Numbered from the stretch's first letter, positions 21,062 through 62,967 are shown. The stretch is DNA of 64,000 nt from Coriobacteriales bacterium (GCA_031256715.1 JAIRQA010000040.1:16736-80735); one strand, 5' to 3'. A program made the numbers and translations. The notes: generated from the sequence alone by a model not told the origin.

Positions 21062-21091
21062 AAGGAGTGCAGATATGAAAGTTAAAAAATC

Positions 21092-37712: not shown

Positions 37713-37763
37713 CGGCGCTTTAATCCTTCATAAAACAAAAAAACCAAGAGAGGAAATAAGAAC

Positions 37764-38897: not shown

Positions 38898-38932
38898 TGC
38901 CCGCAATAGCGTCAACACTAATGCCCGCAATA

Positions 38933-39063
38933 AAGTTAGCTGCAAATTACCCAACGAAGCGTCAACAACCATGGCACTTCTCAACATAGCAAAAAAAGTC
39001 AACTGCAAAGTTGCCAACAAGCTATCCAATGAAGCTTCAACAACCATGGCACTTCTCAACATA
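38933..39063. repeat. about 60-bp imperfect direct repeat x2 in the caiA-caiB spacer
   Basis: ...GCGTCAACAACCATGGCACTTCTCAACATA and ...GCTTCAACAACCATGGCACTTCTCAACATA with related left halves. Confidence 0.8.
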
Positions 39064-39107
39064 ATAAAAAGTTAGCAACCTACAACAAATCTGAAAGGAA
39101 CATAAGC

Positions 39108-40319: not shown

Positions 40320-40343
40320 TATAAAAAGAAAGTGAGAGATGGT

Positions 40344-41195: not shown

Positions 41196-41225
41196 GTAAA
41201 GCCGATTATAAGAAAGAGGTCATAA

Positions 41226-42362
41226 ATGTCAAATTATTCAATTTGGGTAGTAGCCCACGAAGCAGACGCAGCAGCAGAACTTGTTTCCGGAGCACTTTGT
41301 TTAAGCAGCAATGTGAATGCTGTAACTTTTGGTGGCGAGGCAGTAGCCAAGGCCGCACAGGCGCAAGGGGCATTAACGGTATTAAGTGTTAACGCTATTG
41401 ACACACCTGCTACTGACGTGTCTGCTATGGGTACGCCTGCTACTGACGTGTCTGCTGTTGGCACATCTGGGCCAGATAATACTTTAAAAAACTGCTTGCC
41501 AGAAAATCATAGTAAAGCTTTGGCAAAGTTGCTTCAGGAACGCAATTCTAAACTAACTATCTTTAGCGCTACGGCTACAGGTCGTTTGATGGCAGGTATG
41601 GTTGCCAGCCACTTGGGCACTAGTGCTTATAATGCTGCGTCTATAACTATTAATGATGACACACCTGTCATAACAAGCATGGTCTATGGCGGATGCGCCA
41701 TCGCGACTCGCAGGCTTTTAAGCTCACAGGCAGTTATTACTGTAGGTGCTGGCGTTTTAGGGGCGGTATTGCCAGAGTCGCAAGAGCCGCAAGCGTCTGC
41801 ATTGTCAGCGGCATTGCCGGAGTCGCAAGAGCCGCAAGCGTCTGCATTGTCATCGGCATTGCCAGAGGCGGCAGAGTCAGAGCTAGCGTTGTCAGAGCCG
41901 CAAGCGTCTGGCAGCATAGAGCAGATTGATTTAAGTGTTAATGACAATGCTGCAGTTGTGCTTGAAGTAAAGCCGCGTAAGACAGAAAGTGTAAACCTTG
42001 CTGCAGCAAAACGTGTCATTGGCGTTGGTCGTGGCTTTGCCGCCAAGGAAGATTTAGAGTTAGCGTTTAACTTAGCTAGCAAGCTAGATGCCGAGCTTGC
42101 ATGTAGCCGTCCTATTACAGAAAGCGAGAACTGGATGGCTCGCGAGCGCTACATTGGTGTATCTGGTGTTGTGGTTAAGCCTGAATTATATATTGCTTTG
42201 GGTATCTCTGGTCAGATTCAGCACATGGTTGGCGTGAATCAGGCGAAAACCATCATCGCCATTAACAAGGACAAGAACGCTCCTGTATTCAAACAGGCCG
42301 ATTATGGCATTGTTGGCGATATCTATGAGGTTTTGCCGGTCTTAACATCAGCGCTTTCTTAG
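41226..42362 (+). CDS. fixB: electron-transfer flavoprotein alpha subunit, FixB-like, with two tandem-repeat insertions
   Basis: C-terminal ELACSRPITESENWMARERYIGVSG..KPELYIALGISGQIQHMVG...IIAINKDKNAPVF..ADYGIVGD as in FixB/EtfA. Inserts at 41393-41470 and 41765-41915. Confidence 0.85.
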   Translation: MSNYSIWVVAHEADAAAELVSGALCLSSNVNAVTFGGEAVAKAAQAQGALTVLSVNAIDTPATDVSAMGTPATDVSAVGTSGPDNTLKNCLPENHSKALAKLLQERNSKLTIFSATATGRLMAGMVASHLGTSAYNAASITINDDTPVITSMVYGGCAIATRRLLSSQAVITVGAGVLGAVLPESQEPQASALSAALPESQEPQASALSSALPEAAESELALSEPQASGSIEQIDLSVNDNAAVVLEVKPRKTESVNLAAAKRVIGVGRGFAAKEDLELAFNLASKLDAELACSRPITESENWMARERYIGVSGVVVKPELYIALGISGQIQHMVGVNQAKTIIAINKDKNAPVFKQADYGIVGDIYEVLPVLTSALS

Positions 42363-42469
42363 ACGCAATACAGCAGTTAAAGCATGGGGCTTTTTAAAAA
42401 GCAAAAGCAAAAGTCATAAGAACAGTTAAGGGACAATTAAGGGACAATTAAGGTGAGTTAAACGCAATC

Positions 42470-44035
42470 ATGAGTGACATTATTGGCAACACAACCATAG
42501 GCGAGCTTTGGCAGGATGCTGCGTGTACCTACGCAAACAAGACATTTCTAGTCTTCGAGGCCGTAGATGGCAGCAAGCAATCCTATAGTTATGGCAGCTT
42601 TTATGCCCAGATTTGCCGTAGCGCTAATCTTTTTTACTCGTGCGGCATTAGACAAGGTGACATGGTTTTAATGCAGCTATGTAACTCTGCAGAGTTTCTG
42701 ATGGTGTTTTTTGGCTTAAATTTAATAGGCGCGGTTGTTGTGCCTTTAGCTTCTAAAAGTTCGCAACACGAGTTACAGCAGGCACTTTTGGTTTGTAAAC
42801 CAAAGTGGGCAGTTGTTAACGCTGAGCATGTTCAGGCTTATTCAGAAATAGCTAAGGCGGGTGAGTACCTATGTGGTGGTGTCTTTACAGTTAACTCTAA
42901 AGGTAAAGTTAGCTCAATCAAACAAGCCAACATTTTAGATTTTAATGCCAAGCTGTCCGGTGCGAGCGATTCGGTTCCGCCAACAACTGTTACAGACAAC
43001 ATGCAACTTGCAGAGTTGCTCTTTACCTCCGGAACAACCGCCGCTCCAAAAGCCGTAATGATCACACACGCCAACTTGGTTTTTAGTGGTATCTATGGCA
43101 ATTGGCAAACCAGCATGCGCTCTGACGACCGGCTCCTTAGCACCATGCCCGCATGTCATTCAAATTTTCAGATGGCAGCGTTAATGCCGGTTTTGGTGGC
43201 GGGTGCCACACTTATTTTGGTAGAACGCTATAGCGCCAGTCGTTTTTGTTCACAACTACGCCGACATCGCGCAACTATCACACAATTAATATCCATGATG
43301 GTGCGCACGCTGTTGCTTCAACCGCCAAAAGCAGATGACGCACAAAACGACTTACGTGAGGCGCTCTACTTTATGCCTTTATCTGATGTCGAGAAAAACG
43401 CATTTGAGCAGCGCTTTAACGCACGTCTGATGAACACTTATGGCTCTACAGAGACTATAGGATGGGCTGTTACTGATTCTCCATTTGGCAAGCGCTGCTG
43501 GCCAAGCGTTGGTAAAGCAGGATTGGGTTACGAAGTTGGTATTTTTAACGGTGATGGTAAAGAGGTACAACCAGGCGAAGTGGGCGAGTTTCGCGTTAAG
43601 GGCATAGCAGGTCGCACTCTAGCGTTGGGATATTATCAGCAACCTGAGCTTAGTGCTCAGATCATAGATAAAAACGGCTGGATGCGCACCGGTGACAAAG
43701 GTTATATGAATGCAGATGGCTGGTTTTATTTCTGCGATCGTCAGGCAAATATTATTAAACGCGCTGGCGAAAATGTTTCTGCGACAGAGGTAGAGACTGT
43801 ACTTTGTGAGCATCCAGATATCAGTGAAGCTGCGGTTATCGGCGTACATGATGAACTTCGTGATGAAGCGGTTAAGGCATTTGTACTGCCGGTGAGCGGT
43901 GCTTTTCTCGACAAAGAAGAAATAAAACAATGGTGTGCTAGTAAGCTAGCAAGCTATAAAATACCAACAGAGATTGAGTTTGTGAGCGAGTTTCCGCGTA
44001 CCGTGAGTATGAAGATAGAAAAGCGACTTTTGTAG
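42470..44035 (+). CDS. caiC: acyl-CoA ligase, CaiC-like (crotonobetaine/carnitine-CoA ligase)
   Basis: LFTSGTTAAPKAVMITH AMP-binding motif, YGSTET and TGD..Y...G.FYF.DR. Overall colinear with E. coli CaiC (IIG......W.D......KT...). Confidence 0.78.
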   Translation: MSDIIGNTTIGELWQDAACTYANKTFLVFEAVDGSKQSYSYGSFYAQICRSANLFYSCGIRQGDMVLMQLCNSAEFLMVFFGLNLIGAVVVPLASKSSQHELQQALLVCKPKWAVVNAEHVQAYSEIAKAGEYLCGGVFTVNSKGKVSSIKQANILDFNAKLSGASDSVPPTTVTDNMQLAELLFTSGTTAAPKAVMITHANLVFSGIYGNWQTSMRSDDRLLSTMPACHSNFQMAALMPVLVAGATLILVERYSASRFCSQLRRHRATITQLISMMVRTLLLQPPKADDAQNDLREALYFMPLSDVEKNAFEQRFNARLMNTYGSTETIGWAVTDSPFGKRCWPSVGKAGLGYEVGIFNGDGKEVQPGEVGEFRVKGIAGRTLALGYYQQPELSAQIIDKNGWMRTGDKGYMNADGWFYFCDRQANIIKRAGENVSATEVETVLCEHPDISEAAVIGVHDELRDEAVKAFVLPVSGAFLDKEEIKQWCASKLASYKIPTEIEFVSEFPRTVSMKIEKRLL

Positions 44036-44258
44036 GTATTGGCTATGTGCCTTGCAAGCGGCTAATTAAAGCGGTGCCAGGCATGCTTAAGCAAAGGTAG
44101 GTAATGGTTGGTCGAGGTAGGTAAGAGCAGGTAAAGGTAGTGAAGCCAAAGGTAGGCAAGGGTAGGTCGAGGTAGGTAAGAGCAGGTAAAGCTAAACAGA
44201 GTTTAGAAACAAGTAAAACAAGTAAAACAAGTAAATTTTAGTGAAAGGAAGTAACATC

Positions 44259-45131
44259 ATGGCAATCAGCACAGAAATCGTGGGCAAGGAATTTGGACCT
44301 TTTGTACGCGAATACACTTTTAGGGATTTGGAGATATGCGCTTTAGGTTGTGGCGCAGGTTTTGATGGCAAGACTGACCTAGAATACATTAACGAGGTTG
44401 ATCCCGCCGCGCCTAAGTTAAAGGTGCTGCCAATTTTTGGCGTGCCACTTACGGTGCACGAAGAGATGACTAAGACGCTTGATTATGGTTACAATTACGC
44501 TGGGTCGCTGCACTATGGTTTCGAGATTTTATTTCACGCGCCATTTAAGATGAATGATCGCATAGAGACGTTTGTTACTCAAGACGCTCTTTACGATCGC
44601 GGCGAGGGACGTGGTTGTCTTTCTAAGCAGACAGGCCGCTCATATAGTGCCGATGGCACCCATCTGTGCACAACAGAGACCTGGGATTGCTGCATTTTCG
44701 ATGGTGGCTGGGGTGGGCCTGCCGCTCCTAAAGATATAGTAGAAATGCCTGAACGCAAGCCCGATATCGTTGTTCAGGAAGTTTTTCCTCTTAACCAGCC
44801 TCTTATCTATCGCTTGATGGGCGATTGGCACCAGCAGCACATAGATTGGTCATATACCAAGCAAACTGGCCTTGAGCGTCCAATTGCGCACGCTATAAGC
44901 TATGCGGGAGTTGTTATGCGTCATGCCATAGCCAACTATTTTCCGGGTGAGCCTGAGCGTATGACTCGCTTTAAAACACGCGTAACCTCACCGCTTTTGC
45001 CAGGCACAATTTTACATACACGTCTTTGGCAAGTTGGTCAGAATGAATTGCGCTTTGCTCTTTATGATGCCGATGCAGATGAGAAGCAAAGCAAGCCGCA
45101 TCTTAACTTTGGCATTATTCAGTGGAAGTAG
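44259..45131 (+). CDS. MaoC-like double hot-dog (R)-specific enoyl-CoA hydratase/dehydratase
   Basis: About 290 aa. N-terminal VGKEFGPF..EYTFRDL..CALG is typical of the MaoC_dehydrat_N half, and the C-terminal half has a P(L)IYRL(M)GDWHQQHID hot-dog signature. It occupies the slot where CaiD would be expected. Confidence 0.65.
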   Translation: MAISTEIVGKEFGPFVREYTFRDLEICALGCGAGFDGKTDLEYINEVDPAAPKLKVLPIFGVPLTVHEEMTKTLDYGYNYAGSLHYGFEILFHAPFKMNDRIETFVTQDALYDRGEGRGCLSKQTGRSYSADGTHLCTTETWDCCIFDGGWGGPAAPKDIVEMPERKPDIVVQEVFPLNQPLIYRLMGDWHQQHIDWSYTKQTGLERPIAHAISYAGVVMRHAIANYFPGEPERMTRFKTRVTSPLLPGTILHTRLWQVGQNELRFALYDADADEKQSKPHLNFGIIQWK

Positions 45132-45141
45132 CATTAATCTT

Positions 45142-46482
45142 ATGAGCGGCGTTAACGACACTAAAGATAAGGTCATGCTAGACGATGTGGGCATGTCACC
45201 TTTTTTGCGCAGGGTAACGATTTTTGCCAGCGGTGGTCCGTTTTTAGATGGATATGTACTTGCGATTATTGGAGTTGCCTTAGTTCAGCTAACGCCACAA
45301 CTACAGATGACTGCTCAAGAGACAGCACTTACCGGAGTGGCGGCATTGGCGGGTTTGTTTTTAGGCACTTTGGTGGGAGGTTATATTACAGATCTCTTGG
45401 GTCGCAAGGTTATGTTCACAATTGACATAGCTGCTATTGCGGCAATATCTATTGTTAGCATATTTGTAAGTTCGCCTGTAGAGCTGATTATCATGCGTCT
45501 GCTTATTGGCGTGGCAATTGGTGCCGACTACCCTATAGCGACATCACTGGTGGCAGAATTTACGCCTGGTCGCTATAGGGCAATATCTATGGGCGTTTTG
45601 GCAGCTATGTGGTACGTTGGAGCGACATTTGCCGGTCTAGTTGGCTTTCTCTGCATCAATCTAGACGATGGCTGGAAGTGGATGCTGGGCAGTTCTATTC
45701 TGCCTTGTTTGCTAATATTTCTTGGTCGCTTAGACATTCCGGAGTCTCCACGTTGGCTTAATCGTAAGGGTCGAACAGAAGAAGCAACAATGATAGTTCA
45801 CAGGCTCTTTGGTATGCAAGTAGAGCTAGAGAAAGAAGCAGCCCAAAAGACGCGCTATCGCAAACTATTCACGCATGGCTATTTTGGACGCGTTATTTTT
45901 GTTGGTACCATCTGGCTTTGTCAAGTTGTGCCAATGTTTGCCATCTATACCTTTGGACCTCAGATTATGGAAGCTTTTGGCTTAAGTTCTGGACACGAAG
46001 CAATTTTGGGCGACATCGCTATTAGCCTTTTTTTTCTTGCCGGCTGCATACCAGCGATGTATCTACTAAACAGTCTGGGCAGACGTCCAATGCTTATTGG
46101 CAGTTTTGCGATGATGACTTTAACCCTACTGGTGCTGGGGATATATCCCGATGCAGGCATAGTCATAGTTGTGTCGTTGTTTGCCCTTTACGCGTTTTTT
46201 AGTGGAGGTCCGGGCATCATGCAGTGGCTTTATCCAAATGAGTTGTTCCCTACAGATATCCGCGCTTCGGCGGTGGGTGCGGCTATGGCGTTCTCGCGTA
46301 TAGGTACGGTTGTCTCTACATATGCTTTACCAATGTTCATGGTGACCTATGGCGTGGGATCTGTGATGCTTGTTGGTGCTGGCATATCAGTTGTCGGTTT
46401 GCTGGTGAGCATATTTTTTGCGCCAGAGACAAAGGGACGCTCATTAGTTCAGACAAGTGCCTTAGATGATGGCAAGCATTGA
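45142..46482 (+). CDS. MFS transporter (sugar-porter-like)
   Basis: 12 TM. LGRKVMF-type loop, PESPRWL motif and ELFPTDIRASAVG. ATG 45142 lies just after the upstream stop, and the track start overlaps the MaoC gene. Confidence 0.75.
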   Translation: MSGVNDTKDKVMLDDVGMSPFLRRVTIFASGGPFLDGYVLAIIGVALVQLTPQLQMTAQETALTGVAALAGLFLGTLVGGYITDLLGRKVMFTIDIAAIAAISIVSIFVSSPVELIIMRLLIGVAIGADYPIATSLVAEFTPGRYRAISMGVLAAMWYVGATFAGLVGFLCINLDDGWKWMLGSSILPCLLIFLGRLDIPESPRWLNRKGRTEEATMIVHRLFGMQVELEKEAAQKTRYRKLFTHGYFGRVIFVGTIWLCQVVPMFAIYTFGPQIMEAFGLSSGHEAILGDIAISLFFLAGCIPAMYLLNSLGRRPMLIGSFAMMTLTLLVLGIYPDAGIVIVVSLFALYAFFSGGPGIMQWLYPNELFPTDIRASAVGAAMAFSRIGTVVSTYALPMFMVTYGVGSVMLVGAGISVVGLLVSIFFAPETKGRSLVQTSALDDGKH

Positions 46483-46675
46483 TGCAGTGTATGCTACGCG
46501 GTGATGGCAAGTATGGCAGACGGCGATGCCAAGCGGTGATGGCAAGTATGGCAAGTGGCGGCAAAAAGTAGCGGTGGCAAGTATGGCAAGCAATGATGCC
46601 AAGCGGTGATGGCAAAACCCCAAGTGCGAAGATGAGCGGCGACGGTGAGCAATGATGCCTTGGATGGCAAGTAAG
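46465..46675. repeat. degenerate tandem repeats (GATGGCAAG / GGTGATGGCAAGTATGGCA words) between the MFS gene and fixC
   Basis: GCGGTGATGGCAAGTATGGCA and close variants recur at least 5 times. Confidence 0.8.
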
Positions 46676-46724
46676 CTAACAAGCTAGTATGTTAGTATAA
46701 GATTATAATATAAAGGAGTTTGTA

Positions 46725-48014
46725 ATGGCAGATTTTGACGCAATTGTAGTAGGTTCGGGTTGTGCGGGCGCGGTGGCTGCCCATGAGCTTGCAAGTGCCC
46801 AAAAAAACACATTAGTAATAGAACGTGGCGAACGCAATGGTGCAAAGAACATGTCGGGCGGACGCCTATATACACACTCGCTTGCTGCTGTGTTTCCCGA
46901 GTATAAGACGGAAGCGCCGCTTGAGCGTAGGATTGCTCACGAGCGCTTATCGTTTATCACAGACGATGCCTGTACAACTGTAGATTTTTCTTCGGGGCAA
47001 ATGCTTGTGCCAAATTCTGATTCTTATTCTGTACTTAGGGCAGAGTTTGACGAGTGGCTTTCTAGTAAAGCAGAGTCGGCAGGTGCCGAGTATATCAATG
47101 GTATAGCAGTAGAAGGATTGCTTAAAGACGACAGTGGTCGCGTGATTGGTGTAAGAGCCGGAGATGATGAAATAAGCGCTGATATTGTGATTCTTGCCGA
47201 TGGCGTAAACTCGCTTTTGAGCAAAGAAGCAGTTGGTTTTAAGGCGCCTTTGCCAAGCACTATGGCTGTGGGTATCAAGCAAGTAATCGAGCTGCCAGAG
47301 GCGGTTATTAGCGACCGCTTGTTATCACAAGACGGCGATGGCGCTGCATGGCTCTTTGTTGGCGATGCGACACATGGTCACATTGGCGGTGGCTTTATGT
47401 ATACCAATAGAGCTTCTATTTCTCTGGGATTGGTGGCAACAATTTCTGATCTCTTTACAGCCAAACGTCCAATATATCAGATGTTGGAAGATTTAAAGGC
47501 GCATTCGGCAGTTGCACCATTAATTAAGGGCGGCAAAGTTGTAGAGCACTCTGGTCATATGGTACCAGAGGGTGGTCTAAAGATGATGCCGCCACTTACT
47601 GCAGATGGTGTTATGTTGGCAGGCGAATCCGCTATGATGTGTATAAATCTTGGTTATATGGTGCGCGGCATGGATTATGCTATTGCGGCAGGTATGCATG
47701 CTGGGCGAGCGGCTGCCGCCGCTTTAAATAAAGGCGACACATCTGCCGCTGGTTTGGCTGATTACCAAAAAGCGCTGGAAGATAGCTTTGTACTTCAGGA
47801 TTTAAGGCAGTTTTCCGGATTCCCGCATTTTATGGAGAGTACGACGCGTTTATTTAAGGAGTATCCACAGATGCTTAGCGATGTCATGAATACACTGTTT
47901 GTTGTGGATGGGCGTCCAGTGGCACCGCTAAAGAAATCACTAAAACCCATTGTTAAACAGGTGGGCTTAATAAACATGCTTAAGGATGTCAGAGGAGGTA
48001 TAAAAGCATTATGA
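46725..48014 (+). CDS. fixC: FAD-dependent ETF-quinone-oxidoreductase-like protein FixC
   Basis: FDAIVVGSGCAGAVAA, VIERGERNGAKNMSGGR, ILADGVNS and GGFMYTN...SLGLV are colinear with E. coli FixC. Confidence 0.85.
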   Translation: MADFDAIVVGSGCAGAVAAHELASAQKNTLVIERGERNGAKNMSGGRLYTHSLAAVFPEYKTEAPLERRIAHERLSFITDDACTTVDFSSGQMLVPNSDSYSVLRAEFDEWLSSKAESAGAEYINGIAVEGLLKDDSGRVIGVRAGDDEISADIVILADGVNSLLSKEAVGFKAPLPSTMAVGIKQVIELPEAVISDRLLSQDGDGAAWLFVGDATHGHIGGGFMYTNRASISLGLVATISDLFTAKRPIYQMLEDLKAHSAVAPLIKGGKVVEHSGHMVPEGGLKMMPPLTADGVMLAGESAMMCINLGYMVRGMDYAIAAGMHAGRAAAAALNKGDTSAAGLADYQKALEDSFVLQDLRQFSGFPHFMESTTRLFKEYPQMLSDVMNTLFVVDGRPVAPLKKSLKPIVKQVGLINMLKDVRGGIKAL

Positions 48015-48397
48015 GTGCAAAGAGCAACACAATAACGGTGGCAAATGAAAACTCATCAAATGATTTTGGCTTAGAAAAAGGGTTAAAAACGGCCATCGTA
48101 ACTGCAATTGATTCATTAACGGTAAACACTGACGAATATCTGGCACTTAATAAATATGAGGTTGATGAGGCAAATGCCCATATAGAACTAATAGATAATC
48201 CCAGTGAAGAAGAGTTTTTAAAACTTGTTCGCGTTTGTCCGGCCGCCCTTTATAAAATAGACGCTGAAGGCAAACAAAGCTTCGATTACGCCGGCTGCCT
48301 TGAGTGCGGCACATGTCGTATTGCTTGTGGAGACACAATAATTGCCAAGTGGGAAAATCCCCAACCCACCATGGGCATTATTTATCGGTACGGCTAA
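48011..48397 (+). CDS. fixX: ferredoxin-like protein FixX (with an N-terminal extension)
   Basis: CPAALYK......FDYAGCLECGTCRI....I..WE.P....GI.YRYG matches the E. coli FixX C-terminal pattern. ATGA overlap with fixC. Confidence 0.85.
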   Translation: MSAKSNTITVANENSSNDFGLEKGLKTAIVTAIDSLTVNTDEYLALNKYEVDEANAHIELIDNPSEEEFLKLVRVCPAALYKIDAEGKQSFDYAGCLECGTCRIACGDTIIAKWENPQPTMGIIYRYG

Positions 48398-48780: not shown

Positions 48781-51414
48781 GTGGCCGATACAATCGATAT
48801 CCATGCCGAGGGTGTCGAGGTTAAGAAGTCATGCTGTTATTTCTGTCACCAGAATTGCGGCGTGCTTGCGTATGTTAAGGATGGTAAGGTTCTAAAAATT
48901 GAAGGTGACCCAACCCATCCCACCAACCAAGGCGGTCTTTGCTGTCGTGGCAACATAGCACTTCTGCACCTCGATCATCCAGCGCGTATCAACCACCCGC
49001 TTAGGCGTGTGGGCGCAAAAGGCGAGAACAAGTGGGAGAAAATCCCCTGGGAACAGGCAATTTCAGAAATTGCCGAGCGTCTAAATGCGATTAAAGCAGA
49101 GAGCGGAGCAGAGGCTGTGGCGGGTGCCGCTGGTACACTTCGCACCGATGATTGGTCGCGCAGACGCTTCTTTAATATGTTTGGTACTCCAAATGTCTTT
49201 CATAACGCACTTCTGTGTTGGATTCCCACATTTATGGTAGAAACCGCAGTTAGCGGCTGGAGCCCCTTCGAGACCGACCTGGGCGACAGCCGTTGTGTTA
49301 TTCTATGGGGTTTTAACCCGGGTGCCTCGGCAATGCCGGGCATGCGTGGCTACTCTGACTTACGCAAGGCAGGCATGAAGATTATTGTTGTAGACCCACG
49401 TTATTCAGAGACTGCCGCACACTCTGACCTTTGGCTGCCATTGCGACCAGGCTCAGATACAGCTTTGGCTTTGGCTATGATTAATGTCATTATTATGGAA
49501 AGTCTTTACGACGAGGAGTTTGTTAATAACTGGTGTGTTGGTTTCGATGAACTCTGGGATCACGTCATGGAATACACTCCAGAATGGGCATCTGAGCACA
49601 CTTGGTTAGAACCTGAACTTATTCGCGAATGTGCTCGCATGTATGCTAAAAACACACCCAGCAATATCCAGTGGGGTTGTACTGCAGACCAATTGGGTAA
49701 AACATCTGGAGCCGGCATGCACGCACGTGCCATTTTGCGTGCCCTTACCGGAAATCTTGATCGTCCGGGTGGCGACTTGATGCCTGGTCCTTCTCACACT
49801 TATGTTACAGACGAAGAGCTAGAGGCCAACGATTGGCTGCCCGAAGAGCAAAAGGCAAAGCAGATTGGTGCCAATAAGTTTAAGATGACATCTTGGCCTG
49901 GCTACCAGATGATTGCCGACACTGCCCGCGAGACCTGGGGCAAGGCTCCCACGGCCGAGTGGATGTGCGAGGCTCATGGTCCATCAGTCTTTAAGGCCAT
50001 ACTTACGGGTGACCCTTACCAAATACGCGCACTTATTGTTAGCGCTACCAATCCGGTTAACTCTTACGGCGATTCTAAGATGACGCTTGAGGCACTTAAA
50101 AAGGTGGAATTTTTGGTAACCTGCGAGTACTGGATGACTCCCGCCGCAATCTATAGCGACTACGTGATGCCTATCGCCGGTGCCCTAGAGCGTCCTATCG
50201 TTCACAACAACTATGGCGTCACCGATCACCTAATAGCCTCGCAGCGTGCTATTCAGCCGCTATATGAGCGTCACACAGACTACAACTTCTGGCGCGACTT
50301 GGCGCTAGCTACAGGCCAAGACGTTGACCAATGGCCATGGGAGACCTTAGAGGACGCATTCTACTATGTAACCTATCCGCTTAACGAGCAAGGTTACGTG
50401 CATGGATCGTATGATGAATTTGTCGAGAAGTACCGCTTCTTCTATCCCCCAGTTCACTATTATGGTTATGGACGAAACGGCTTTTGCACTCCTTCGCGTC
50501 GCGTAGAACTAAAAAGCTCTATTTTGGAGGAGCTGGGATATCCAGCGCTACCCACTTGGATAGGACCGGCAGAAAACGAGATTGACGATCCTGATGTTGC
50601 AAAAGAATATCCACTTGTGCTTACAACTGGTGGCGGATTTATGCCATATCATCATTCTGAGCAGTTTAACATTCAGTCTGTGCGTTTCTTGCGCCACGAG
50701 CCTTACTTTACCATCAATCCAGAAAAAGCAGACGAACTGGGCATTAAAGATGGTGATTGGTGTTGGATAGAGACTCGCCGTGGGCGTATTCGTCAACGTG
50801 CGAACGTAGAGCCGTCTGTAGACAAGCGCGTTATTTATGCTCAGCGCGGTTGGTGGTATCCAGAGCGCCAGATTGCTCCAGGAGCTGTTGTTCCCGATGA
50901 GCCTTTTGGTTGCTTAGAGAGTAACGTTAATGTGCTATCTTCTGTAGATGACGAGCACTGCGACCCCATTGGCGGCAGCTGGGCGAATCGTGGTCTTCTC
51001 TGCAAGGTTTACAAAGTAGATTATTGGGACGAGGTAGAAACGCAGTTCTCTATACCAGGTTCTTCATCTGAGCCAGGCATCACCGTACCGCCATCTAAAC
51101 AGAAGCTAGCGTACGAGCCAATTCCCTATGACCCCAAGCCCGATTTTGAAGTTCCCGAGGGGCTTACTTGGGACAAGAAGACCAAGTACGCTTGGGATTT
51201 AGAGCTAGGTTTGTACTATGATAAGGATTCTGGCTGGTTGATTCATCCAGAGACACAGGTTTATTATGACCTTTATACAAAGTATGCCTATGACCCTACC
51301 GATAACACCTTGGTAGACGAGGCAACCGGCGTTCACTACGACATGGAGACGCGCCAACCCATTGGCGGCGTTGCTCCAGTTTCTGCACCAGCAACCACGG
51401 AAGGAGGGGAGTGA
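48781..51414 (+). CDS. molybdopterin (bis-MGD) oxidoreductase catalytic subunit with no signal peptide and a 131-aa C-terminal extension
   Basis: N-terminal CCYFCHQNCG...CCRG 4Fe-4S motif starts at residue 18, with no RRxFLK. Molybdopterin-binding body. GTG start after AGAGAGGAAAC, with no in-frame upstream start. The tail at 51019-51411 is Y/D/W-rich. Confidence 0.85.
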   Translation: MADTIDIHAEGVEVKKSCCYFCHQNCGVLAYVKDGKVLKIEGDPTHPTNQGGLCCRGNIALLHLDHPARINHPLRRVGAKGENKWEKIPWEQAISEIAERLNAIKAESGAEAVAGAAGTLRTDDWSRRRFFNMFGTPNVFHNALLCWIPTFMVETAVSGWSPFETDLGDSRCVILWGFNPGASAMPGMRGYSDLRKAGMKIIVVDPRYSETAAHSDLWLPLRPGSDTALALAMINVIIMESLYDEEFVNNWCVGFDELWDHVMEYTPEWASEHTWLEPELIRECARMYAKNTPSNIQWGCTADQLGKTSGAGMHARAILRALTGNLDRPGGDLMPGPSHTYVTDEELEANDWLPEEQKAKQIGANKFKMTSWPGYQMIADTARETWGKAPTAEWMCEAHGPSVFKAILTGDPYQIRALIVSATNPVNSYGDSKMTLEALKKVEFLVTCEYWMTPAAIYSDYVMPIAGALERPIVHNNYGVTDHLIASQRAIQPLYERHTDYNFWRDLALATGQDVDQWPWETLEDAFYYVTYPLNEQGYVHGSYDEFVEKYRFFYPPVHYYGYGRNGFCTPSRRVELKSSILEELGYPALPTWIGPAENEIDDPDVAKEYPLVLTTGGGFMPYHHSEQFNIQSVRFLRHEPYFTINPEKADELGIKDGDWCWIETRRGRIRQRANVEPSVDKRVIYAQRGWWYPERQIAPGAVVPDEPFGCLESNVNVLSSVDDEHCDPIGGSWANRGLLCKVYKVDYWDEVETQFSIPGSSSEPGITVPPSKQKLAYEPIPYDPKPDFEVPEGLTWDKKTKYAWDLELGLYYDKDSGWLIHPETQVYYDLYTKYAYDPTDNTLVDEATGVHYDMETRQPIGGVAPVSAPATTEGGE

Positions 51415-51416
51415 AC

Positions 51417-51992
51417 ATGACCCGTTACGCAATGGTTATGGATCAGCGCCGCTGCATTGGTTGCCAATCTTGTACGGTTGCCTGTCGCACTTGGAACGAG
51501 CTTCCATTAGATATTTTATATAATCCAGTTGTTGGCGAAGGTGTTGTTGGCGAGTTTCCACATGTACACCAGACTTTTACTCCGCTTATTTGCATGCACT
51601 GTGACAATCCTCCATGTACAATTTGCTGCCCATGTAAGGCATCGCAACAAGATGAGGATGGTATTGTTTGGGTAGAGTCCGAGAAGTGCATGGCTTGTAA
51701 GGCCTGTGTTAACTCTTGCCCTTATGGCGCTCGCGACGTGAGCGCATTAGATGCGCCTTTGCATAGCTATGTTCGCAAGTGCAACTTTTGCAAAGATCGC
51801 GTGCGCGAGGGTGAATTACCCTACTGTGTGGCTACCTGCCACCAAAAGGCACGTATTTTTGGTGATTTAGACGATCCTAATTCTGATGTTTCTAAGCTTG
51901 TTAATGGTCTAAACACTAATCGTATCTTCCCCGAGCTGGGCACTGATCCCCAGGTCTACTACATTCCAGATTTGGGAGGTGTAAAGCTATGA
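51417..51992 (+). CDS. 4Fe-4S ferredoxin-type electron-transfer subunit (DmsB/PsrB-like)
   Basis: MTRYAMVMDQRRCIGCQSCTVAC..., further CxxCxxCxxxCP groups, and RIFGDLDDPNSDVSK. Confidence 0.88.
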   Translation: MTRYAMVMDQRRCIGCQSCTVACRTWNELPLDILYNPVVGEGVVGEFPHVHQTFTPLICMHCDNPPCTICCPCKASQQDEDGIVWVESEKCMACKACVNSCPYGARDVSALDAPLHSYVRKCNFCKDRVREGELPYCVATCHQKARIFGDLDDPNSDVSKLVNGLNTNRIFPELGTDPQVYYIPDLGGVKL

Positions 51993-52999
51993 GTCACAAA
52001 ATGGATAGCAATAAGTTAGAGAAGCACTACTGGATTTGGCCAATTGCCATCTATTTGTTCTTGGGTGGACTTGGCGGTGGCACACTGTTTGTTGCCGGTA
52101 TGTTTGATATTCTTTATGGTCCCGAGGCAGGCTACATCACTGCTTTGGCTGTACTTGCCGGTGTCGCTTGTTTGGGATTTGGCAGCTTTCTGTTGGTTTT
52201 TGAGCTGGGGCAGCCACTAGTGTTTTTGCGCGTGTTTTTAAGTGGCACAGCAATTCTTAAATATGGCGCCTGCCTATTGATTCTTGCCATGGGCTTTGGA
52301 TTCGTGAACTTTTTATACTATCTGCCTGCAGAATGGCAGCTTTTTTACTATAGCTGGACATGGATTCGCGACCTTTGTTGTTGGCTAATGGCTATCTGTG
52401 GTCTTGGCGTTATGGTTTATACAGGTGTCTTTTTGGCTAGCATGAAGGCCAAGGCGTTTTGGAACACACCGGCGCTACCAGTATTGTTTACGGTTTCGGC
52501 TCTATCTACAGCTACAGTGCTTCTTGCTATTTTGGCTGGAGTCTGGCCTATGCCCGCAGATTTCACAGTTCAGCTCGCAGGTGCTGCTCACGCAGCCGAG
52601 TTTGACGCCCATAAACTTGTTGAGGAATTGCACTTTATAGATAGCATTTTGGTAATAGCTGAGGTTATCGTATTGTTGGTTTACGTACTTATGATGCGCG
52701 CCGCAGGAAATATTACGGCACGCACTATTGCCATAAAGTGGTTACAGGGCGCATGGGCACCATTGTTTTGGGGCGGAATGATTTGCCTTGGGCTCGTGAT
52801 TCCGTTCTTCTGTTATCGCCTAGGCGGTGCCGGAGCAGAATTTATAGCACCGGTGTTGGTTTTAGCGGCCGGTTTACTATTGCGCTTTATGGTGGTCTTT
52901 AGCGACCAGCGCCATGAAATTGCCGGCGAGCGTCGTTTTTACAACAGATTGCCTAAGGGCGATGAGGCGTTTTTGCATGAATGGAAAGCTCCGTATTAG
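51989..52999 (+). CDS. NrfD/PsrC-family polytopic membrane anchor subunit
   Basis: 336 aa, about 8-9 TM helices. HYWIWPIAIYLFLGGLGGG N-terminal signature of the NrfD family. ATGA overlap with the Fe-S subunit. Confidence 0.8.
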   Translation: MSHKMDSNKLEKHYWIWPIAIYLFLGGLGGGTLFVAGMFDILYGPEAGYITALAVLAGVACLGFGSFLLVFELGQPLVFLRVFLSGTAILKYGACLLILAMGFGFVNFLYYLPAEWQLFYYSWTWIRDLCCWLMAICGLGVMVYTGVFLASMKAKAFWNTPALPVLFTVSALSTATVLLAILAGVWPMPADFTVQLAGAAHAAEFDAHKLVEELHFIDSILVIAEVIVLLVYVLMMRAAGNITARTIAIKWLQGAWAPLFWGGMICLGLVIPFFCYRLGGAGAEFIAPVLVLAAGLLLRFMVVFSDQRHEIAGERRFYNRLPKGDEAFLHEWKAPY

Positions 53000-53454
53000 T
53001 TTGCAAACAAACTAATACACTAGCTTGCTAGCCTACTAGTATACTAGCATGTATACTTTTGCTCGAGCATTTAAAGTTACTTGCTTCAGCTTGTAAGTAT
53101 GTAGGTGCTATAATGACAAGGACAAGCATAAGGAAAGCATAAGACTGGCATAAGGATGAGCATAGGCCAAGCGCAGGAACAAGCATAAGGACGTGCACAA
53201 GACAGGCACAAGAACAAGCATAAGAACGTGCGCAAGACAGGCACAAGGACGTAGTTTTTGCTAAGTTATACATAATGCAAAATATAACGCGAAATATAAC
53301 GCAAGAAAACGGCGGGTCTCCCAGCAAGGAGACCCGTCCGACTTTAGATTTGGCCTTAAACGATCTGACTATATGCGAAGCCCACACTTTGTCTGATACA
53401 AATGGTGCAAGACTCACGTTAAGTGGTGCCGCTGCCAGGCCATGGCGTGTAGAC

Positions 53455-54282
53455 ATGGAACCAAATATTTTTTCGTTAATGCGCGCTTGTCAAGCGTCAC
53501 AACTAGATGATTGTTTTGTTTCTGAAGCGCCAAAAGATACAATCTTTGTTCCGGGTTGTATGTTGTCGGCAGAATCTCTTGAGCTTACCACAGCAGTTTA
53601 CAGCTGGCTTTGCGCTCATAGCCTCGTAGATGGTATCACTTTTCGCTGCTGCGGCAATATCTTAAAAACCATGTCTTCACCAGCAGAGCGCGAACAATAT
53701 CTTTGTGACCTAAGACAACAACTTGCTGTTCATGAGGTATCTTGCATCATTACGGCATGCCCAAATTGTTACAAGGCATTTAATCTCTTAAAAAATGAGA
53801 ATAGCCTGTGCGATTATAAGGTCTTAGCCTTAAGCGAGGTACTGGCAAAAAGTGGCATGCGTATTAGGGCTTCTGATACTAGTTATTGCATTCACGATTC
53901 CTGTCCCGACCGTACTAGTGGTGTTTTTGCTGCAAGTGTTCGCTCGCTCTTTAGTTCTACAGCCGCGCAGGGCGCTAATTGTAATACGCTCTGCGAAATG
54001 AAGCACAACCGCGAGCAATCTCGCTGCTGTGGATTAGGAAAAATGCTTTCGCTTACAGACCCTAACGCGAGCGCCAAAATGAGGGAAGCTCGCGCTAAGG
54101 AATTCTTTCAGACAGATGCTAATAAGCTAGTAACATATTGTGCTACATGCACGCAGGCATTTCAAACGTCGGAGGCAAAACGGTACTGCTGGCATTATCT
54201 AGAGCTGCTATTTGACATAGAGATAGACTGGCAGGCAAACCAGAAACGCTTTGAGCACTGCTTGGCATGTGTCAGCGGCTAA
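53455..54282 (+). CDS. cysteine-rich CCG-domain (HdrB/GlpC/LutA-like) Fe-S protein
   Basis: Two CCG motifs (FRCCGN and SRCCGLG) plus ACPNCY and YCATC. ATG 53455 preferred, since the track start at 53275 lies in repeat DNA. Confidence 0.6.
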   Translation: MEPNIFSLMRACQASQLDDCFVSEAPKDTIFVPGCMLSAESLELTTAVYSWLCAHSLVDGITFRCCGNILKTMSSPAEREQYLCDLRQQLAVHEVSCIITACPNCYKAFNLLKNENSLCDYKVLALSEVLAKSGMRIRASDTSYCIHDSCPDRTSGVFAASVRSLFSSTAAQGANCNTLCEMKHNREQSRCCGLGKMLSLTDPNASAKMREARAKEFFQTDANKLVTYCATCTQAFQTSEAKRYCWHYLELLFDIEIDWQANQKRFEHCLACVSG

Positions 54283-54390: not shown

Positions 54391-55704
54391 CTAAAACGAC
54401 CCCATGTCTTCCTTACGACTACCAACATTACCGCCAGCCGAGGTGTACAACGAAATCGTGTAGTCGTAGTAGGACTCTAAATCTACTGTCTCGTAGCCTT
54501 CGTTAAAGGTCATTACCGAGTAACTACCCTTTTTGCCAAACATCTCTTTATCGCCAAACCAAAGATCTCCCCATGCCTCCTTAAATGTATAGGTTCCAGG
54601 GGCGATATCCATAGTAATCGATTCGCCTTTGTTTACAAAAATGCTCGCGACATGAGTGTCTCCGCTATAGATTTTTATGAAGGATGGTTGGGATGAACCA
54701 GAGCCATCAAATTTCATGCTAACAACTGAGGAGTGGTAACTACCGTGTTGGTAAAGAACAGATGTTGCCGGCATAGGCACTAAGCAGGATTGAGCCATTT
54801 CGGCGGAGTCCTTAAAATCGCCCAGTATTTTAAAGGCAGTGTAGGCTTCTTCGCGACTGTCGGCCTCTAATAGGGCAACCGCATCTGCGTAGTCTAGATT
54901 GTCATAGCAATCTAAAATCAAGTCGGTTGTTTCAAAAGTATCTGGCAGCAGCATAAAGGCACTTGCAGCAGCCTCGTAATCGCCACTTTCGTAAAGGGCA
55001 ATGGCGTTTTCGAAATCTATATTTGCTTCGCATTCTTTAATATATTCGGCAGTGTTTTTATAGTCAGGCCCGATATCCTCAAATTCAGACAAAGCATCAT
55101 CATAGTAACCGTCATTCATTTGTACTATTGCCGCTTCATATCTATTGGCAAGAGCCTCGGCTGCCGCTTGGCGAGCAAGCATGTCGCTAATAACTACGCC
55201 TGCAATTACAATCGCAATGACAAAAATTACTGCGCCAACAATAATAAATGGAAGCTTAGAGCGCTTTTTCTTTGGCACGTCTAGTTCTGTTGGTACAGTT
55301 TGAAGTGTTGGCGAAGCCAGTGGGGTTGGTGCATCTGGCGGTGTTGGATATACATGAGGTGCTGGTGCATCTGGCTGCGTTGGCCAGGCTTGAGGTGCCG
55401 ATAAAATTTGCGCGTCAGGTACGGCTTGAGGCATTGGCGTGGATTGCTCTATTGGCGATGCCTGTGGTATTGGCGTGACTTGCTCTACTGGCGAAACCTG
55501 TGGAGTTGGAGTGACTTGCTCTACTGACGAAACCTGTGGCATCGATGCGATTTGCTGTGCGTCAGGCTCTGTTGGGGTCATTTGATCTATTTGTTCAACT
55601 TGCCCATTTGGCGTAACCGAATTTAAGGGAATTATTGGCGCCCCGCATTGCAGGCAAAACTTACCGTCATCAACAATTTTGGTGCCGCATTTACTGCAAA
55701 ACAT
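54391..55704 (-). CDS. zinc-ribbon membrane protein with a proline-rich repeat linker, one TM and a TPR-like extracytoplasmic region
   Basis: MFCSKCGTKI..GKFCLQCGAPI zinc ribbon, (E)QVTPTPQVSPV repeats, TM LPFIIVGAVIFVIAIVIAGVVI, then Y/D/A-rich TPR-like repeats. Confidence 0.65.
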   Translation of the reverse strand: MFCSKCGTKIVDDGKFCLQCGAPIIPLNSVTPNGQVEQIDQMTPTEPDAQQIASMPQVSSVEQVTPTPQVSPVEQVTPIPQASPIEQSTPMPQAVPDAQILSAPQAWPTQPDAPAPHVYPTPPDAPTPLASPTLQTVPTELDVPKKKRSKLPFIIVGAVIFVIAIVIAGVVISDMLARQAAAEALANRYEAAIVQMNDGYYDDALSEFEDIGPDYKNTAEYIKECEANIDFENAIALYESGDYEAAASAFMLLPDTFETTDLILDCYDNLDYADAVALLEADSREEAYTAFKILGDFKDSAEMAQSCLVPMPATSVLYQHGSYHSSVVSMKFDGSGSSQPSFIKIYSGDTHVASIFVNKGESITMDIAPGTYTFKEAWGDLWFGDKEMFGKKGSYSVMTFNEGYETVDLESYYDYTISLYTSAGGNVGSRKEDMGSF

Positions 55705-57312: not shown

Positions 57313-58977
57313 TTAATCATCTGAATGCGTTAACTCTAAGAGGTCAATTAACTCTTGTCTAGAATGCACATTGGTTTTCTGATAGATGCGCTGCCTGTGA
57401 GTGCTTACTGTGCCAGCAGAGATATTTAGTGATGCCTGAATATGTGAAGTGTCCCTGCCTTTAATTAGGTGAACTAAAACTTCGGTCTCGCGTTGGGTTA
57501 GTAAAAAGCGGGATGCTAGCTTCTTACAACGCGATTGAAGAGCGCCCAAGCGTCCGCCATAACCTGTAGTAATGGTAACAACGTTGCGTTCCGGCAGAAT
57601 AAAAGCATAGGTAATAACTAGCAAGATAGTAAGAATAGAGACGATGAAAGCCGAGGAAGTTGTAAGTACTCCCGTGGCAGTAGTGCCCATTGCAATTGCG
57701 TTAGACGCTGCGTCTGTCGCCGCGGTTATTGTGCTTGCAGCTGTACCAGATGCCGCGCCAGCGGCTGCGTCTGTCGCCGCGGCAATTGTGTCTGCAGCTG
57801 TACCAGATGCCGCGCCAGCAATTGCGTTAGTCCCAAAGGCATCAACAAGATTCATAAAAGGCAGCGGAGGCTGAAGCCCACCAAGAAAGACACCAACAAC
57901 CCAGCCGGCACGACCAAGCCCGAATGCACGAAGTGGAGCGACATGATAGCGATAGCAGATATTAGAAAGCGCTATCCAAAAAATTAACTCGAAACAGCTA
58001 TAGCCCACATTGATCATTATAGAGGTCAACTGCCAGTAAGTACTGCCTAGCCACGTACAGGAAAGTACAGAGGCTATCATAAAAACAAGCACAAAGCGAT
58101 AGATAAATCCAATATCTGAGCGTTTTAGAACAAGGATTGAGGCAGCAATAAGAATGACCAAAATTAATGTTGAACCAACTTGAGTAATTGCAAACGTAAG
58201 CTCTAGCGACGGCACAAATGTGCTGTTCTGAACAATTGCGCCGCTGCTAGCCGCAAACGAAAGCTGCTTTTGAACGCCAACAACGGCAGCATGAACAAAG
58301 CTGATTATTAGTGCGGCAAAGCAGATGCGCAGCGCCCCTGTCTCTCCCTCAGGTGAAAACTTGGTTTTAATAGAAGCAGCGGGGATGTCTGCGTACTTCT
58401 CGACATTATTTTTACTTGAAGAGTACCTAAGAGCTAAAGCAGAGAGCAGTGGCAAAAATGCGCCAGATATGACATAAAAAAGATTAGACGTAAAGAGCAT
58501 GAAAAGCGCATAAATTACTATTGCTAATGTAAAAGCTAAAGCTGAGTGCAGCTGCGCCATGGCGGGCTCGGTTTTTCCATACTGTTCTGCCCAATAAAAG
58601 AGCAACAGACCAGAGCCAACCCCGGTAAATAATCCACAAAGATAGGGGACGGCGGGAATGGTGACAAGCTCTGTTGCCGCTAACAATAAGGATCCCACAG
58701 ACATTAGAAGCGGGCTGGCAATTTTAAGTGCACGCGTTTGCATGCATTGCCTTAGCTTGTTGGGCAGTAGTACTCCGCAAATCATGACGCCTACAAGAAG
58801 CAGCAGCGACAGTGGATAAATAACATTGGCTTCGTCGTTAACGTGGTTATTAGTGATAAATATATTTGCCGAGAAGAAAAAAGTCGCTATCCATGCACGA
58901 TGGAAAGCGAAGCCTAGTACTTTTGGGTTAAGCACTTCAGAAAAGCTTGATTTTATAAACCCAACCGCTTCATTCAT
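57313..58977 (-). CDS. LuxR-family transcriptional regulator with a polytopic N-terminal membrane domain
   Basis: Multiple TM helices, an A/T/G-rich duplicated insert (AGAASGTAA.TI.AATDAA x2), and a C-terminal HTH (QRETEVLVHLIKGRDTSHIQASLNISAGTVSTHRQRIYQK). Divergent from the reductase operon. Confidence 0.85.
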   Translation of the reverse strand: MNEAVGFIKSSFSEVLNPKVLGFAFHRAWIATFFFSANIFITNNHVNDEANVIYPLSLLLLVGVMICGVLLPNKLRQCMQTRALKIASPLLMSVGSLLLAATELVTIPAVPYLCGLFTGVGSGLLLFYWAEQYGKTEPAMAQLHSALAFTLAIVIYALFMLFTSNLFYVISGAFLPLLSALALRYSSSKNNVEKYADIPAASIKTKFSPEGETGALRICFAALIISFVHAAVVGVQKQLSFAASSGAIVQNSTFVPSLELTFAITQVGSTLILVILIAASILVLKRSDIGFIYRFVLVFMIASVLSCTWLGSTYWQLTSIMINVGYSCFELIFWIALSNICYRYHVAPLRAFGLGRAGWVVGVFLGGLQPPLPFMNLVDAFGTNAIAGAASGTAADTIAAATDAAAGAASGTAASTITAATDAASNAIAMGTTATGVLTTSSAFIVSILTILLVITYAFILPERNVVTITTGYGGRLGALQSRCKKLASRFLLTQRETEVLVHLIKGRDTSHIQASLNISAGTVSTHRQRIYQKTNVHSRQELIDLLELTHSDD

Positions 58978-62312: not shown

Positions 62313-62400
62313 ACATGACCAGATATGCGATTGTTCGCCTGAAAGAGTGGTTGCCAACCTATGAGGGAAGGGAGTAGACATGACCAGATATGCGATTGTT
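62271..62400 (+). repeat. 65-bp perfect-register tandem duplication (2 mismatches) spanning the catalytic-subunit stop and the Fe-S-subunit start
   Basis: 62271-62335 and 62336-62400 both read CGCCTGAAAGAGTGGTTGCCAAC(T/C)TATGAGGGAAGGGAGTA(A/G)ACATGACCAGATATGCGATTGTT. Confidence 0.95.
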
Positions 62401-62964: not shown

Positions 62965-62967
62965 AGC

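Follow-up and report, generated by a model that had tools for sequence, protein, structure and literature searches.

A signal-less, NrfD-anchored molybdopterin oxidoreductase operon of a Coriobacteriales bacterium and its predicted cytoplasmic orientation

On which side of the membrane does a molybdopterin oxidoreductase work when it is encoded together with an iron-sulfur (Fe-S) subunit and an NrfD-type anchor, and none of the three proteins carries an export signal? The question is raised by a stretch of 64,000 nucleotides from a Coriobacteriales bacterium (GCA_031256715.1, JAIRQA010000040.1:16736-80735; the whole stretch is called the window here), in which an operon at 48781-52999 comprises three plus-strand open reading frames (ORFs) for a catalytic subunit (Mo1), a four-cluster Fe-S subunit and an NrfD/PsrC-type anchor. 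An initial annotation of the window had proposed that this complex, which lacks the signal for twin-arginine translocation (TAT) that its relatives have, either faces the cytoplasm or uses an unrecognised export route. The first alternative gained support from signal-less orthologues, the charge bias of the anchor and a linked HdrB/HdrD-like protein, while the second found none. In view of three signal-less subunits, an anchor with a reversed charge bias and a linked gene of a cytoplasmic HdrB/HdrD-like type, we consider it likely that the complex docks on the cytoplasmic face of an inverted NrfD-type anchor and works inside the cell.

Mo1 begins at a GTG (position 48781) that has a good ribosome-binding site and lies 5 nt downstream of AGAGAGGAAAC; reading back in frame from there to the nearest stop, the ten codons (ISANRRKRGN) include no ATG, GTG or TTG. 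The initial annotation had placed the start 17 residues before the first Fe-S cysteine, and the first cysteine is indeed residue 18, with the FS0 motif reading C19-x2-C22-x3-C26...C54. Orthologues agree at their N-termini with this start and with the lack of a signal: the 120 best homologues, which are 63-84% identical, have the same start or short extensions without an arginine pair, an RR-type motif precedes FS0 in none of the 116 homologues with an intact N-terminus, and across 81 related loci the frame that is open upstream of the Mo1 start (median 23 residues) never encodes a twin-arginine signal. The further claim that Mo1 has no RRxFLK motif holds for the window, the 116 homologues and the 81 loci alike, and the claim that it has no upstream in-frame start holds for the window. 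An upstream or non-canonical start encoding a TAT signal was rejected, as none was found in the window or in those loci.

The partner subunits had likewise been described as signal-less, and both the window proteins and the N-termini of their orthologues bear this out. The Fe-S subunit begins MNMTRYAMVMDQRRCIGC, entering the first cluster motif directly; its orthologues all begin M(T/A)RYAMV..D..RCIGC, and the arginine pair in the QRRC of the window protein is part of this first motif, with no hydrophobic stretch after it. The anchor opens with a Lys-rich tail of 18 residues that leads into helix 1. No transmembrane or hydrophobic segment is predicted in the catalytic subunit, the Fe-S subunit or the protein with CCG domains encoded downstream of them, and no gene within the operon bears a signal. 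The paralogue at 59406 in the same window does have a TAT signal, as annotated: it begins MKLSTMTRRSFLKSAAIVGAATAL and matches the Pfam family TAT_signal. Judged by their N-termini, neither Mo1 nor the Fe-S subunit has the TAT signal that characterises the exterior-facing NrfD-anchored enzymes of the Psr, Phs, Ttr, Arr and Dms type.

The topology of the anchor was predicted from the positive-inside rule combined with a hydropathy scan for helices, which returns eight helices for the window protein. On the side of the N-terminus, which comprises both tails and loops 2-3, 4-5 and 6-7, Lys and Arg residues number 15; on the other, with loops 1-2, 3-4, 5-6 and 7-8, they number 3. Among 56 orthologues with eight predicted helices, the side that holds the N-terminus carries a mean of 16.2 Lys+Arg against 1.7 on the other side, the smallest difference being 9, and with both tails omitted the internal loops still give 8.6 against 1.7, a bias present in every one of the 56. 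The inverted bias is found in 57 of 57 family members. Four TAT-linked control anchors, one of them from the window, show the opposite: the DmsC-type anchor of the TAT-bearing operon of the window (3 Lys+Arg on the N-terminal side, 9 on the other), a PsrC-like anchor in the related locus L026 (2 and 9), which adjoins an RRSFLAG-bearing subunit starting ...ITRRSFLAGSAG, E. coli NrfD (5 and 12), whose NrfC starts MTWSRRQFLTG, and E. coli DmsC (4 and 8). The topology check proposed in the initial annotation consequently predicts the reverse of the TAT-linked anchors, with both termini cytoplasmic. Judged by the same charges, the anchor does not appear to share the arrangement of the exterior-facing type, in which the termini lie outside and Lys+Arg residues are enriched on odd-numbered loops.

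The window anchor and its L026 paralogue align over their full length at 27% identity with their helices matched one to one, and the charged loops are exchanged loop by loop: WPIAIYLFLGGLGGG of the window anchor aligns with GIIACYLFLAGLGGG of the paralogue, and PVLFTVSALSTA aligns with PVLFIVSALSTG. A search of solved structures with the anchor as a single sequence gave nothing useful; an ortholog profile was needed to reach the PsrC of the solved Thermus complex (2vpw_C), which it matches at E = 1.8e-4 with helix 1 falling onto helix 1. In canonical members, the N-terminal end of the core, the quinone site (helices 1-4) and the Fe-S subunit are all outside (PMC8076601). Since the charge bias is reversed and the helices correspond one to one, the canonical outer face would be the predicted cytoplasmic face of the operon's anchor. 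The basic C-terminal tail of the anchor (PGE..Y..RLP.GDE.FL..WK), kept from Coriobacteriia to Desulfuromonadales and Chloroflexi and absent from the TAT-linked L026 paralogue, is a candidate docking element for cytoplasmic subunits on that cytoplasmic face.

The third line of evidence comes from the gene downstream of the anchor, whose product has two Cx(n)CCGx(m)CxxC motifs, matches Pfam CCG and is probably an accessory cytoplasmic subunit. In about 35 of the related loci, roughly half, a CCG homologue is encoded downstream of NrfD. Full-length orthologues, from other phyla and from some Coriobacteriia, have an N-terminal two-cluster ferredoxin domain that the window protein does not have and that is also missing in the CCG proteins of the relatives L001, L005, L010 and L012; because this domain is missing, the window protein is better described as HdrB-like than as HdrD- or GlpC-like. 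Its start is uncertain, with candidate ATG codons at 53275 and 53455, neither of which has a ribosome-binding site, and the segment 53275-53455 looks like a degenerate remnant of the ferredoxin domain. The 276-bp gap between the NrfD and CCG genes contains a degenerate tandem repeat (53118-53247) with a period of 12 (AAGGACAAGCAT, about 9 copies), which was also scored at a period of 35.

The features of the operon are collected in Table 1. Neighbouring genes share 4 nt at each junction (GTGA, ATGA), an overlap that implies coupled translation, so that the Mo1, Fe-S and NrfD genes are very probably co-translated; the GTG start of the Fe-S gene overlaps the Mo1 stop. Mo1 matches the Pfam families Molybdopterin (E = 3e-30), Molydop_binding (6e-17), Molybdop_Fe4S4 (7e-15) and OCRE, and the Fe-S subunit matches Fer4_11 (E = 5e-20). 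With these domains, the FS0 motif and metal ligand, and the partners encoded beside it, the operon is predicted to specify a complex iron-sulfur molybdoenzyme. No NCBIfam model reaches its cut-off for any operon subunit, and the output names no Soe match. An Rfam scan of the whole window returned a single tRNA, with no molybdenum cofactor (Moco) riboswitch or other RNA element upstream, and scans for promoters and terminators scored no better than shuffled sequence and were left unused. The G+C content of the window is about 46%; its best protein matches (up to 84-88% identity) are in metagenome-assembled Coriobacteriales genomes, and an exact-sequence look-up found the window protein not to be on record.

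Table 1. Coordinates of the features of the Mo1 operon and the adjoining CCG gene, counted from the first nucleotide of the window. Mo/W-bisPGD, molybdenum or tungsten bis-pyranopterin guanine dinucleotide.
Feature	Position	Strand	Basis
Mo1, catalytic Mo/W-bisPGD subunit, 877 aa, no signal peptide	48781-51414	+	Pfam; acetylene hydratase 2e7z best solved relative
FS0 [4Fe-4S] motif C19, C22, C26, C54 with His23	48835-48942	+	invariant in 142 non-redundant family members
Cys146 codon, predicted Mo/W ligand	49216-49218	+	aligns with acetylene hydratase Cys141
Mo1 C-terminal extension, residues 747-877	51019-51411	+	Pfam OCRE E = 8e-10
OCRE-like module, Mo1 residues 792-859, 68 residues, Tyr/Asp-rich, single copy	51154-51357	+	
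Four-cluster Fe-S electron-transfer subunit, 193 aa, no signal	51411-51992	+	Pfam Fer4_11; four Cys groups legible
NrfD/PsrC-type anchor, 336 aa, 8 predicted helices	51989-52999	+	Pfam NrfD E = 7.5e-21
Conserved basic C-terminal tail of the anchor, PGE..Y..RLP.GDE.FL..WK	52898-52996	+	ortholog conservation
HdrB-like protein, two CCG domains, no signal	53275-54282	+	Pfam CCG

What kind of catalyst would such an anchor hold? Among solved structures, acetylene hydratase (2e7z) comes closest to Mo1, with E = 2e-116 and 33% identity across 741 residues, followed by PsrA/PhsA (E = 1.5e-60), while pyrogallol transhydroxylase is remote (E = 7e-7). The initial annotation had asked for Mo1 to be placed against known clades. 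We did so by comparing identities; the supplement of PMC7028382 (eLife) supplied the Cldh and Dodh of Gordonibacter. Mo1 is about equidistant from Mo2 (35%), which is a second uncharacterised molybdenum (Mo) protein encoded beside the module in many genomes, from acetylene hydratase (33%), from Cldh (32%) and from Dodh (30%), is 26% identical to the TAT-bearing paralogue of the window, and is far from pyrogallol transhydroxylase. By these comparisons, Mo1 is predicted to be a separate branch of the acetylene hydratase/Cldh/Dodh group, in which every known member is cytoplasmic and lacks a signal.

The ligands of this group are retained throughout the family: C19, C22, C26, C54, His23, Cys146 and Trp147 are invariant in 142 of 142 non-redundant members. 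Cys146 aligns with the metal-ligand Cys141 of acetylene hydratase, and His23 aligns with its catalytic Asp13, which neighbours the second FS0 cysteine; Cldh and Dodh also have His at this position. The invariance of the FS0 cysteines, Cys146 and Trp147 indicates that Mo1 is a real cofactor-binding subunit, and a scaffold role appears unlikely for the same reason. Given its four-cluster partner and a quinone-interacting anchor, the reaction predicted for Mo1 must be a redox reaction. Two specific identifications were rejected: that of acetylene hydratase, because His invariably takes the place of Asp13 and redox partners are encoded alongside, and that of the Gordonibacter Dodh, to which, as to Cldh, Mo1 is only 30-32% identical. 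Members of the Cldh/Dodh family are 41-47% identical to one another, which places Mo1, with its 30-32% and its full CxxCxxxC, outside that family. The published dodh quantitative PCR primers found no match in a Gordonibacter locus, the forward primer not even with 3 mismatches.

Beyond residue 746, Mo1 of the window continues into an extension with an OCRE-like module whose consensus is PEGLxWD..YD..SGWL..YYD..YAYDP..L.DE.TG..YDMETR. Coriobacteriia homologues carry 1-4 copies of it and often end in EGGE, and orthologues from other phyla end near residue 750 with no such module. It occurs in no other ORF of the window, and a search of the literature on OCRE together with molybdopterin found nothing.

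We infer the assembly of the subunits, their coupling to quinone, the participation of the HdrB-like protein and the direction of electron flow from this composition. Three subunits, possibly four, would form a complex iron-sulfur molybdoenzyme, of which the catalytic and Fe-S subunits would never be exported, assembling in the cytoplasm and docking on the cytoplasmic face of the anchor. Electrons would move by way of four [4Fe-4S] clusters and FS0, five Fe-S clusters in all, between the Mo/W centre and a menaquinone site in helices 1-4, at their cytoplasmic end. The substrate would be a small molecule present in, or imported into, the cytoplasm; genes for major facilitator superfamily (MFS), ATP-binding cassette (ABC) or MIP transporters adjoin the module in several lineages, which fits a substrate needing import. 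The Coriobacteriia are best known as users of organic electron acceptors (bioRxiv 2022.12.26.521950). As the class has this specialisation and the nearest redox-active relatives, Cldh and Dodh, are reductive, we lean slightly towards a menaquinol-driven reduction (dehydroxylation or deoxygenation) of an imported organic compound over an oxidation. In the reductive case, the complex would build no proton gradient of its own; outward-facing hydrogenases or formate dehydrogenases feeding electrons inward would provide the charge separation.

Several points weigh against this picture. The topology is derived from the positive-inside rule and a simple hydropathy predictor, and complex formation and quinone coupling are read from gene order and family membership. 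The quinone ligands of PsrC, Asn18 and His21, are not conserved, the window anchor having Ile19 and Tyr22. The CCG gene of the window, with neither a ribosome-binding site nor a ferredoxin domain, may be decaying. Finally, with its quinone site on the cytoplasmic side, a reductase of this kind would conserve no energy itself, which weakens the reductive reading in particular.

It is on this last point that the most serious rival builds. The same complex in the same orientation could run in the opposite direction, oxidising or hydroxylating a cytoplasmic substrate and reducing menaquinone at the cytoplasmic side as SoeABC does, with outward-facing TAT-dependent reductases re-oxidising the menaquinol and closing a proton-motive redox loop. 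SoeABC, the sole accepted precedent for the orientation, is a dehydrogenase; protons would reach a quinone site on that side from the cytoplasm, which would be productive only for a donor enzyme; the genome has outward-facing reductases to accept the electrons, such as the operon at 59406; and the modules of Desulfuromonadales and Firmicutes adjoin sigma-54/PAS activators of the kind found with catabolic operons. Energetically, the oxidative direction would be the more attractive of the two. The nearest characterised redox-active relatives, Cldh and Dodh, are nevertheless reductases, Coriobacteriia chiefly use organic electron acceptors (bioRxiv 2022.12.26.521950), and the gene neighbourhoods yielded no substrate candidate, so that we regard the oxidative direction as possible rather than probable.

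A second rival accepts the orientation and doubts the catalysis: Mo1 might have a structural or electron-relaying part, comparable to that of QrcB or ActB, which are cofactor-less, and the Fe-S/NrfD pair might be a quinone-linked hub feeding other soluble enzymes that are encoded close by in other genomes (a second acetylene-hydratase-like, a Cldh/Dodh-like or an HdrD-like protein). NrfD and Fe-S dimers are known as general redox modules (PMC6303296), and downstream of the module most other phyla encode a second Mo protein or a Cldh/Dodh-like protein that lacks a dedicated Fe-S partner. The hub is improbable, however, in view of the invariance of the FS0 cysteines, Cys146 and Trp147 in 142 sequences and the normal scores of the pterin-binding domains, and because the window and its close relatives L004, L006, L009 and L013 have a lone module with no second Mo gene nearby.

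That the complex faces outward after all, its catalytic and Fe-S subunits riding on a TAT-bearing partner encoded elsewhere or taking an unknown route, is highly improbable: TAT co-export of signal-less partners is known for hydrogenases and DmsB, the Pro/Ser/Thr-rich tail of Mo1 resembles the linkers of surface proteins and its Coriobacteriia-specific C-terminal extension might take part, but the anchor bias is inverted in all 57 family members and normal in the four TAT-linked controls, orthologues from outside the Coriobacteriia are equally signal-less without the tail, the linked HdrB/HdrD-like protein comes from a cytoplasmic family, and the operon holds no gene with a signal.

With a cytoplasm-facing complex as the preferred reading, we turn to how widely the module occurs. 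A scan of one genome per species returned 80 module loci. Mo1 proteins of Coriobacteriia, including orthologues carried by cultured Gordonibacter and Raoultibacter strains, are 62-88% identical, and those from elsewhere are 62-68% identical over residues 1-750; the latter belong to Selenomonadales, Desulfosporosinus and other Peptococcaceae, Geobacter, Pelobacter, Malonomonas, Geopsychrobacteraceae, Anaerolineales and other Chloroflexi, and Acidobacteriota. In every locus with a contig long enough to show it, the genes stand in the order Mo1, Fe-S, NrfD; this holds for Coriobacteriia, Negativicutes, Peptococcaceae, Desulfuromonadales, Chloroflexi and Acidobacteriota. The three-gene module is thus conserved in at least six phyla at 62-68% identity, which is an unusually high degree.

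Around it, several genes recur. The most frequent neighbour is a radical-SAM protein with a zinc ribbon (HMPTM), from the pterin-methylase/Tes/TrsS superfamily (38 loci), followed by the CCG protein (35 loci), a PhnP-like protein of metallo-beta-lactamase fold (26 loci), a DUF2064 protein (24 loci), a ferredoxin-DUF169 fusion (20 loci) and a GNAT acetyltransferase (15 loci). Mo2 or a Cldh/Dodh-like protein, sigma-54/PAS activators, genes of Moco synthesis and MFS, ABC or MIP transporters are also recurrent. In at least six phyla the module lies within a conserved cluster (L010 at 8000-22000, L064 at 4000-20000, L068, L077 and L070, for example) of the radical-SAM, DUF2064, PhnP-like, ferredoxin-DUF169 and GNAT genes, together with genes for a flavin reductase and another acetylene-hydratase-like Mo protein. 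Its make-up differs among the nearest relatives of the window, which have the bare three genes, the three with CCG and Mo2, or the full set; the window itself contains none of the radical-SAM, DUF2064, PhnP-like, DUF169, GNAT and Mo2 genes. TrsS has been listed merely as a selenoprotein family, with no function given, and a search for papers or curated families found none for the module or for the DUF169/DUF2064/radical-SAM cluster. Beside the module in L064 (4249-6489, Anaerolineales) and L070 (16015-18309, Geopsychrobacteraceae) lie genes for proteins 41-47% identical to Cldh/Dodh, and relatives of this enzyme type, which a review placed in Eggerthella and Gordonibacter, consequently occur beyond those two genera.

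It is conceivable, if on balance unlikely, that the module forms, with the HdrD-like protein, the second Mo protein and the radical-SAM, DUF2064, PhnP-like, ferredoxin-DUF169 and GNAT proteins, the membrane part of a widespread unnamed cytoplasmic Mo-enzyme system. If so, this would be a new quinone-linked cytoplasmic pathway, possibly with a modified pterin cofactor, and a clean example from nature of evolution inverting the topology of an eight-helix membrane protein.

The other genes of the window add context. Upstream of the operon, on the same strand and after a gap of 384 bp, lies the cai/fix-like cluster to which the initial annotation had drawn attention (36315-48397), in the order MFS, acyl-CoA dehydrogenase, CaiB-type CoA transferase, EtfB, EtfA, AMP-forming CoA ligase, MaoC, MFS, FixC and FixX. 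The set looks like a module for CoA-dependent enoate or betaine reduction tied to the quinone pool. Its position is as annotated, but no functional weight attaches to it: a tblastn search with the ten cai/fix proteins against 82 loci found no linkage to the module elsewhere, and since no homologue lies near the module in any of the 80 related loci we take the adjacency to be incidental. Downstream, a second molybdoenzyme operon (59406-63840) encodes the TAT-bearing catalytic subunit, a Fer4_11 subunit and a DmsC-type anchor. Divergent from it on the minus strand (57313-58977) is a gene for a LuxR/GerE regulator of 554 residues with at least eight predicted helices; a divergent membrane-bound LuxR protein next to a TAT-bearing operon is the arrangement described for inducible Eggerthella reductase operons, and no regulator of this kind adjoins the signal-less operon. 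A minus-strand ORF (54391-55704) located between the two molybdoenzyme operons encodes a protein of 437 residues, which has a zinc ribbon at its N-terminus, a long linker of Pro/Gln-rich repeats, a single helix and, at its C-terminus, a domain without a family match.

How does the operon compare with known systems? The initial annotation had implied that a TAT-less, NrfD-anchored layout is rare, which overstates the case, as SoeABC is an accepted complex of this kind whose anchor is presumed to be inverted (PMC8076601; PMC6335251). Like the operon, SoeABC, the sulfite:quinone oxidoreductase of Allochromatium vinosum, Ruegeria pomeroyi and Aquifex aeolicus, combines a Mo-bisPGD catalyst with an Fe-S subunit of four clusters and an NrfD/PsrC anchor of 8 helices. 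None of its subunits has a signal, and the peripheral ones are considered to face the cytoplasm on an inverted anchor. From its N-termini and loop charges, the operon would share both the absence of any subunit signal and the inverted anchor. SoeA, however, is of a different lineage and, at about 109 kDa, larger than the 746-residue core of Mo1. SoeABC is found mainly in Proteobacteria and Aquificae (PMC8076601), and it lacks an HdrD-like partner and an OCRE tail. As the best relatives of Mo1 are acetylene hydratase, Cldh and Dodh, orthology to SoeA or SoeC seems unlikely.

PsrABC/PhsABC (polysulfide and thiosulfate reductases; 2vpw) has the same three-subunit plan, and among solved structures the anchor profile matches PsrC alone; in contrast to the operon, PsrA bears a TAT signal and faces the periplasm, the anchor is oriented the opposite way and Asn18 and His21 serve as quinone ligands. 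Acetylene hydratase of Pelobacter acetylenicus resembles Mo1 in being cytoplasmic and signal-less, with an FS0 cluster and a metal-ligand Cys, but is a stand-alone, non-redox hydratase without Fe-S or membrane partners, in which an essential Asp13 stands in place of His and Ile142 in place of Trp. The nitrate reductase NarGHI and the HdrDE and DsrMK modules are, as the operon is predicted to be, cytoplasm-facing and linked to the quinone pool, and HdrD and DsrK share CCG domains with the downstream protein; their anchors, unlike the cofactor-less NrfD, are di-haem cytochromes b of the NarI type.

The catechol dehydroxylases described from Eggerthellaceae are of two types, one with a TAT signal and an anchor and one soluble without an anchor. 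Enzymes of the Gordonibacter type (Dodh, Cldh, Eadh1/2) are like Mo1 in having no TAT signal, a presumed cytoplasmic location and MFS genes nearby, and share its N-terminal signature C-H-x-x-C-G-V-L..Y.K.G...K.EGDP; they differ in that the first FS0 cysteines are missing (GPGCHxGC), the Fe-S partner is small, there is no anchor and the enzymes are described as soluble. Those of the Eggerthella type (Dadh, Cadh, Hcdh), like the second molybdoenzyme operon of the window, share the organismal group and the three-subunit membrane plan of the Mo1 operon, but have a TAT signal, face outward and are usually accompanied by a membrane-bound LuxR regulator, as the second operon of the window is.

An operon that is signal-less yet coupled to the membrane would represent a third type. 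Its marks are a catalyst of the acetylene hydratase/Cldh/Dodh group, an inverted anchor with a specific tail, a frequent HdrD-like partner, an OCRE-like tail in Coriobacteriia, and conservation across phyla. A survey of respiratory reductases in gut Eggerthellaceae counted molybdopterin enzymes by their signal peptide (bioRxiv 2022.12.26.521950), and surveys based on signal peptides miss enzymes such as this one. The concept itself is not a new principle given SoeABC, but the reversed charge bias provides sequence-level evidence for an inversion of the anchor that has so far been merely assumed for SoeC, and the module constitutes an overlooked, widespread and testable enzyme family. For the organism, an inward-facing enzyme would need its substrate to be imported, and its energetics would differ from those of its outward-facing relatives.

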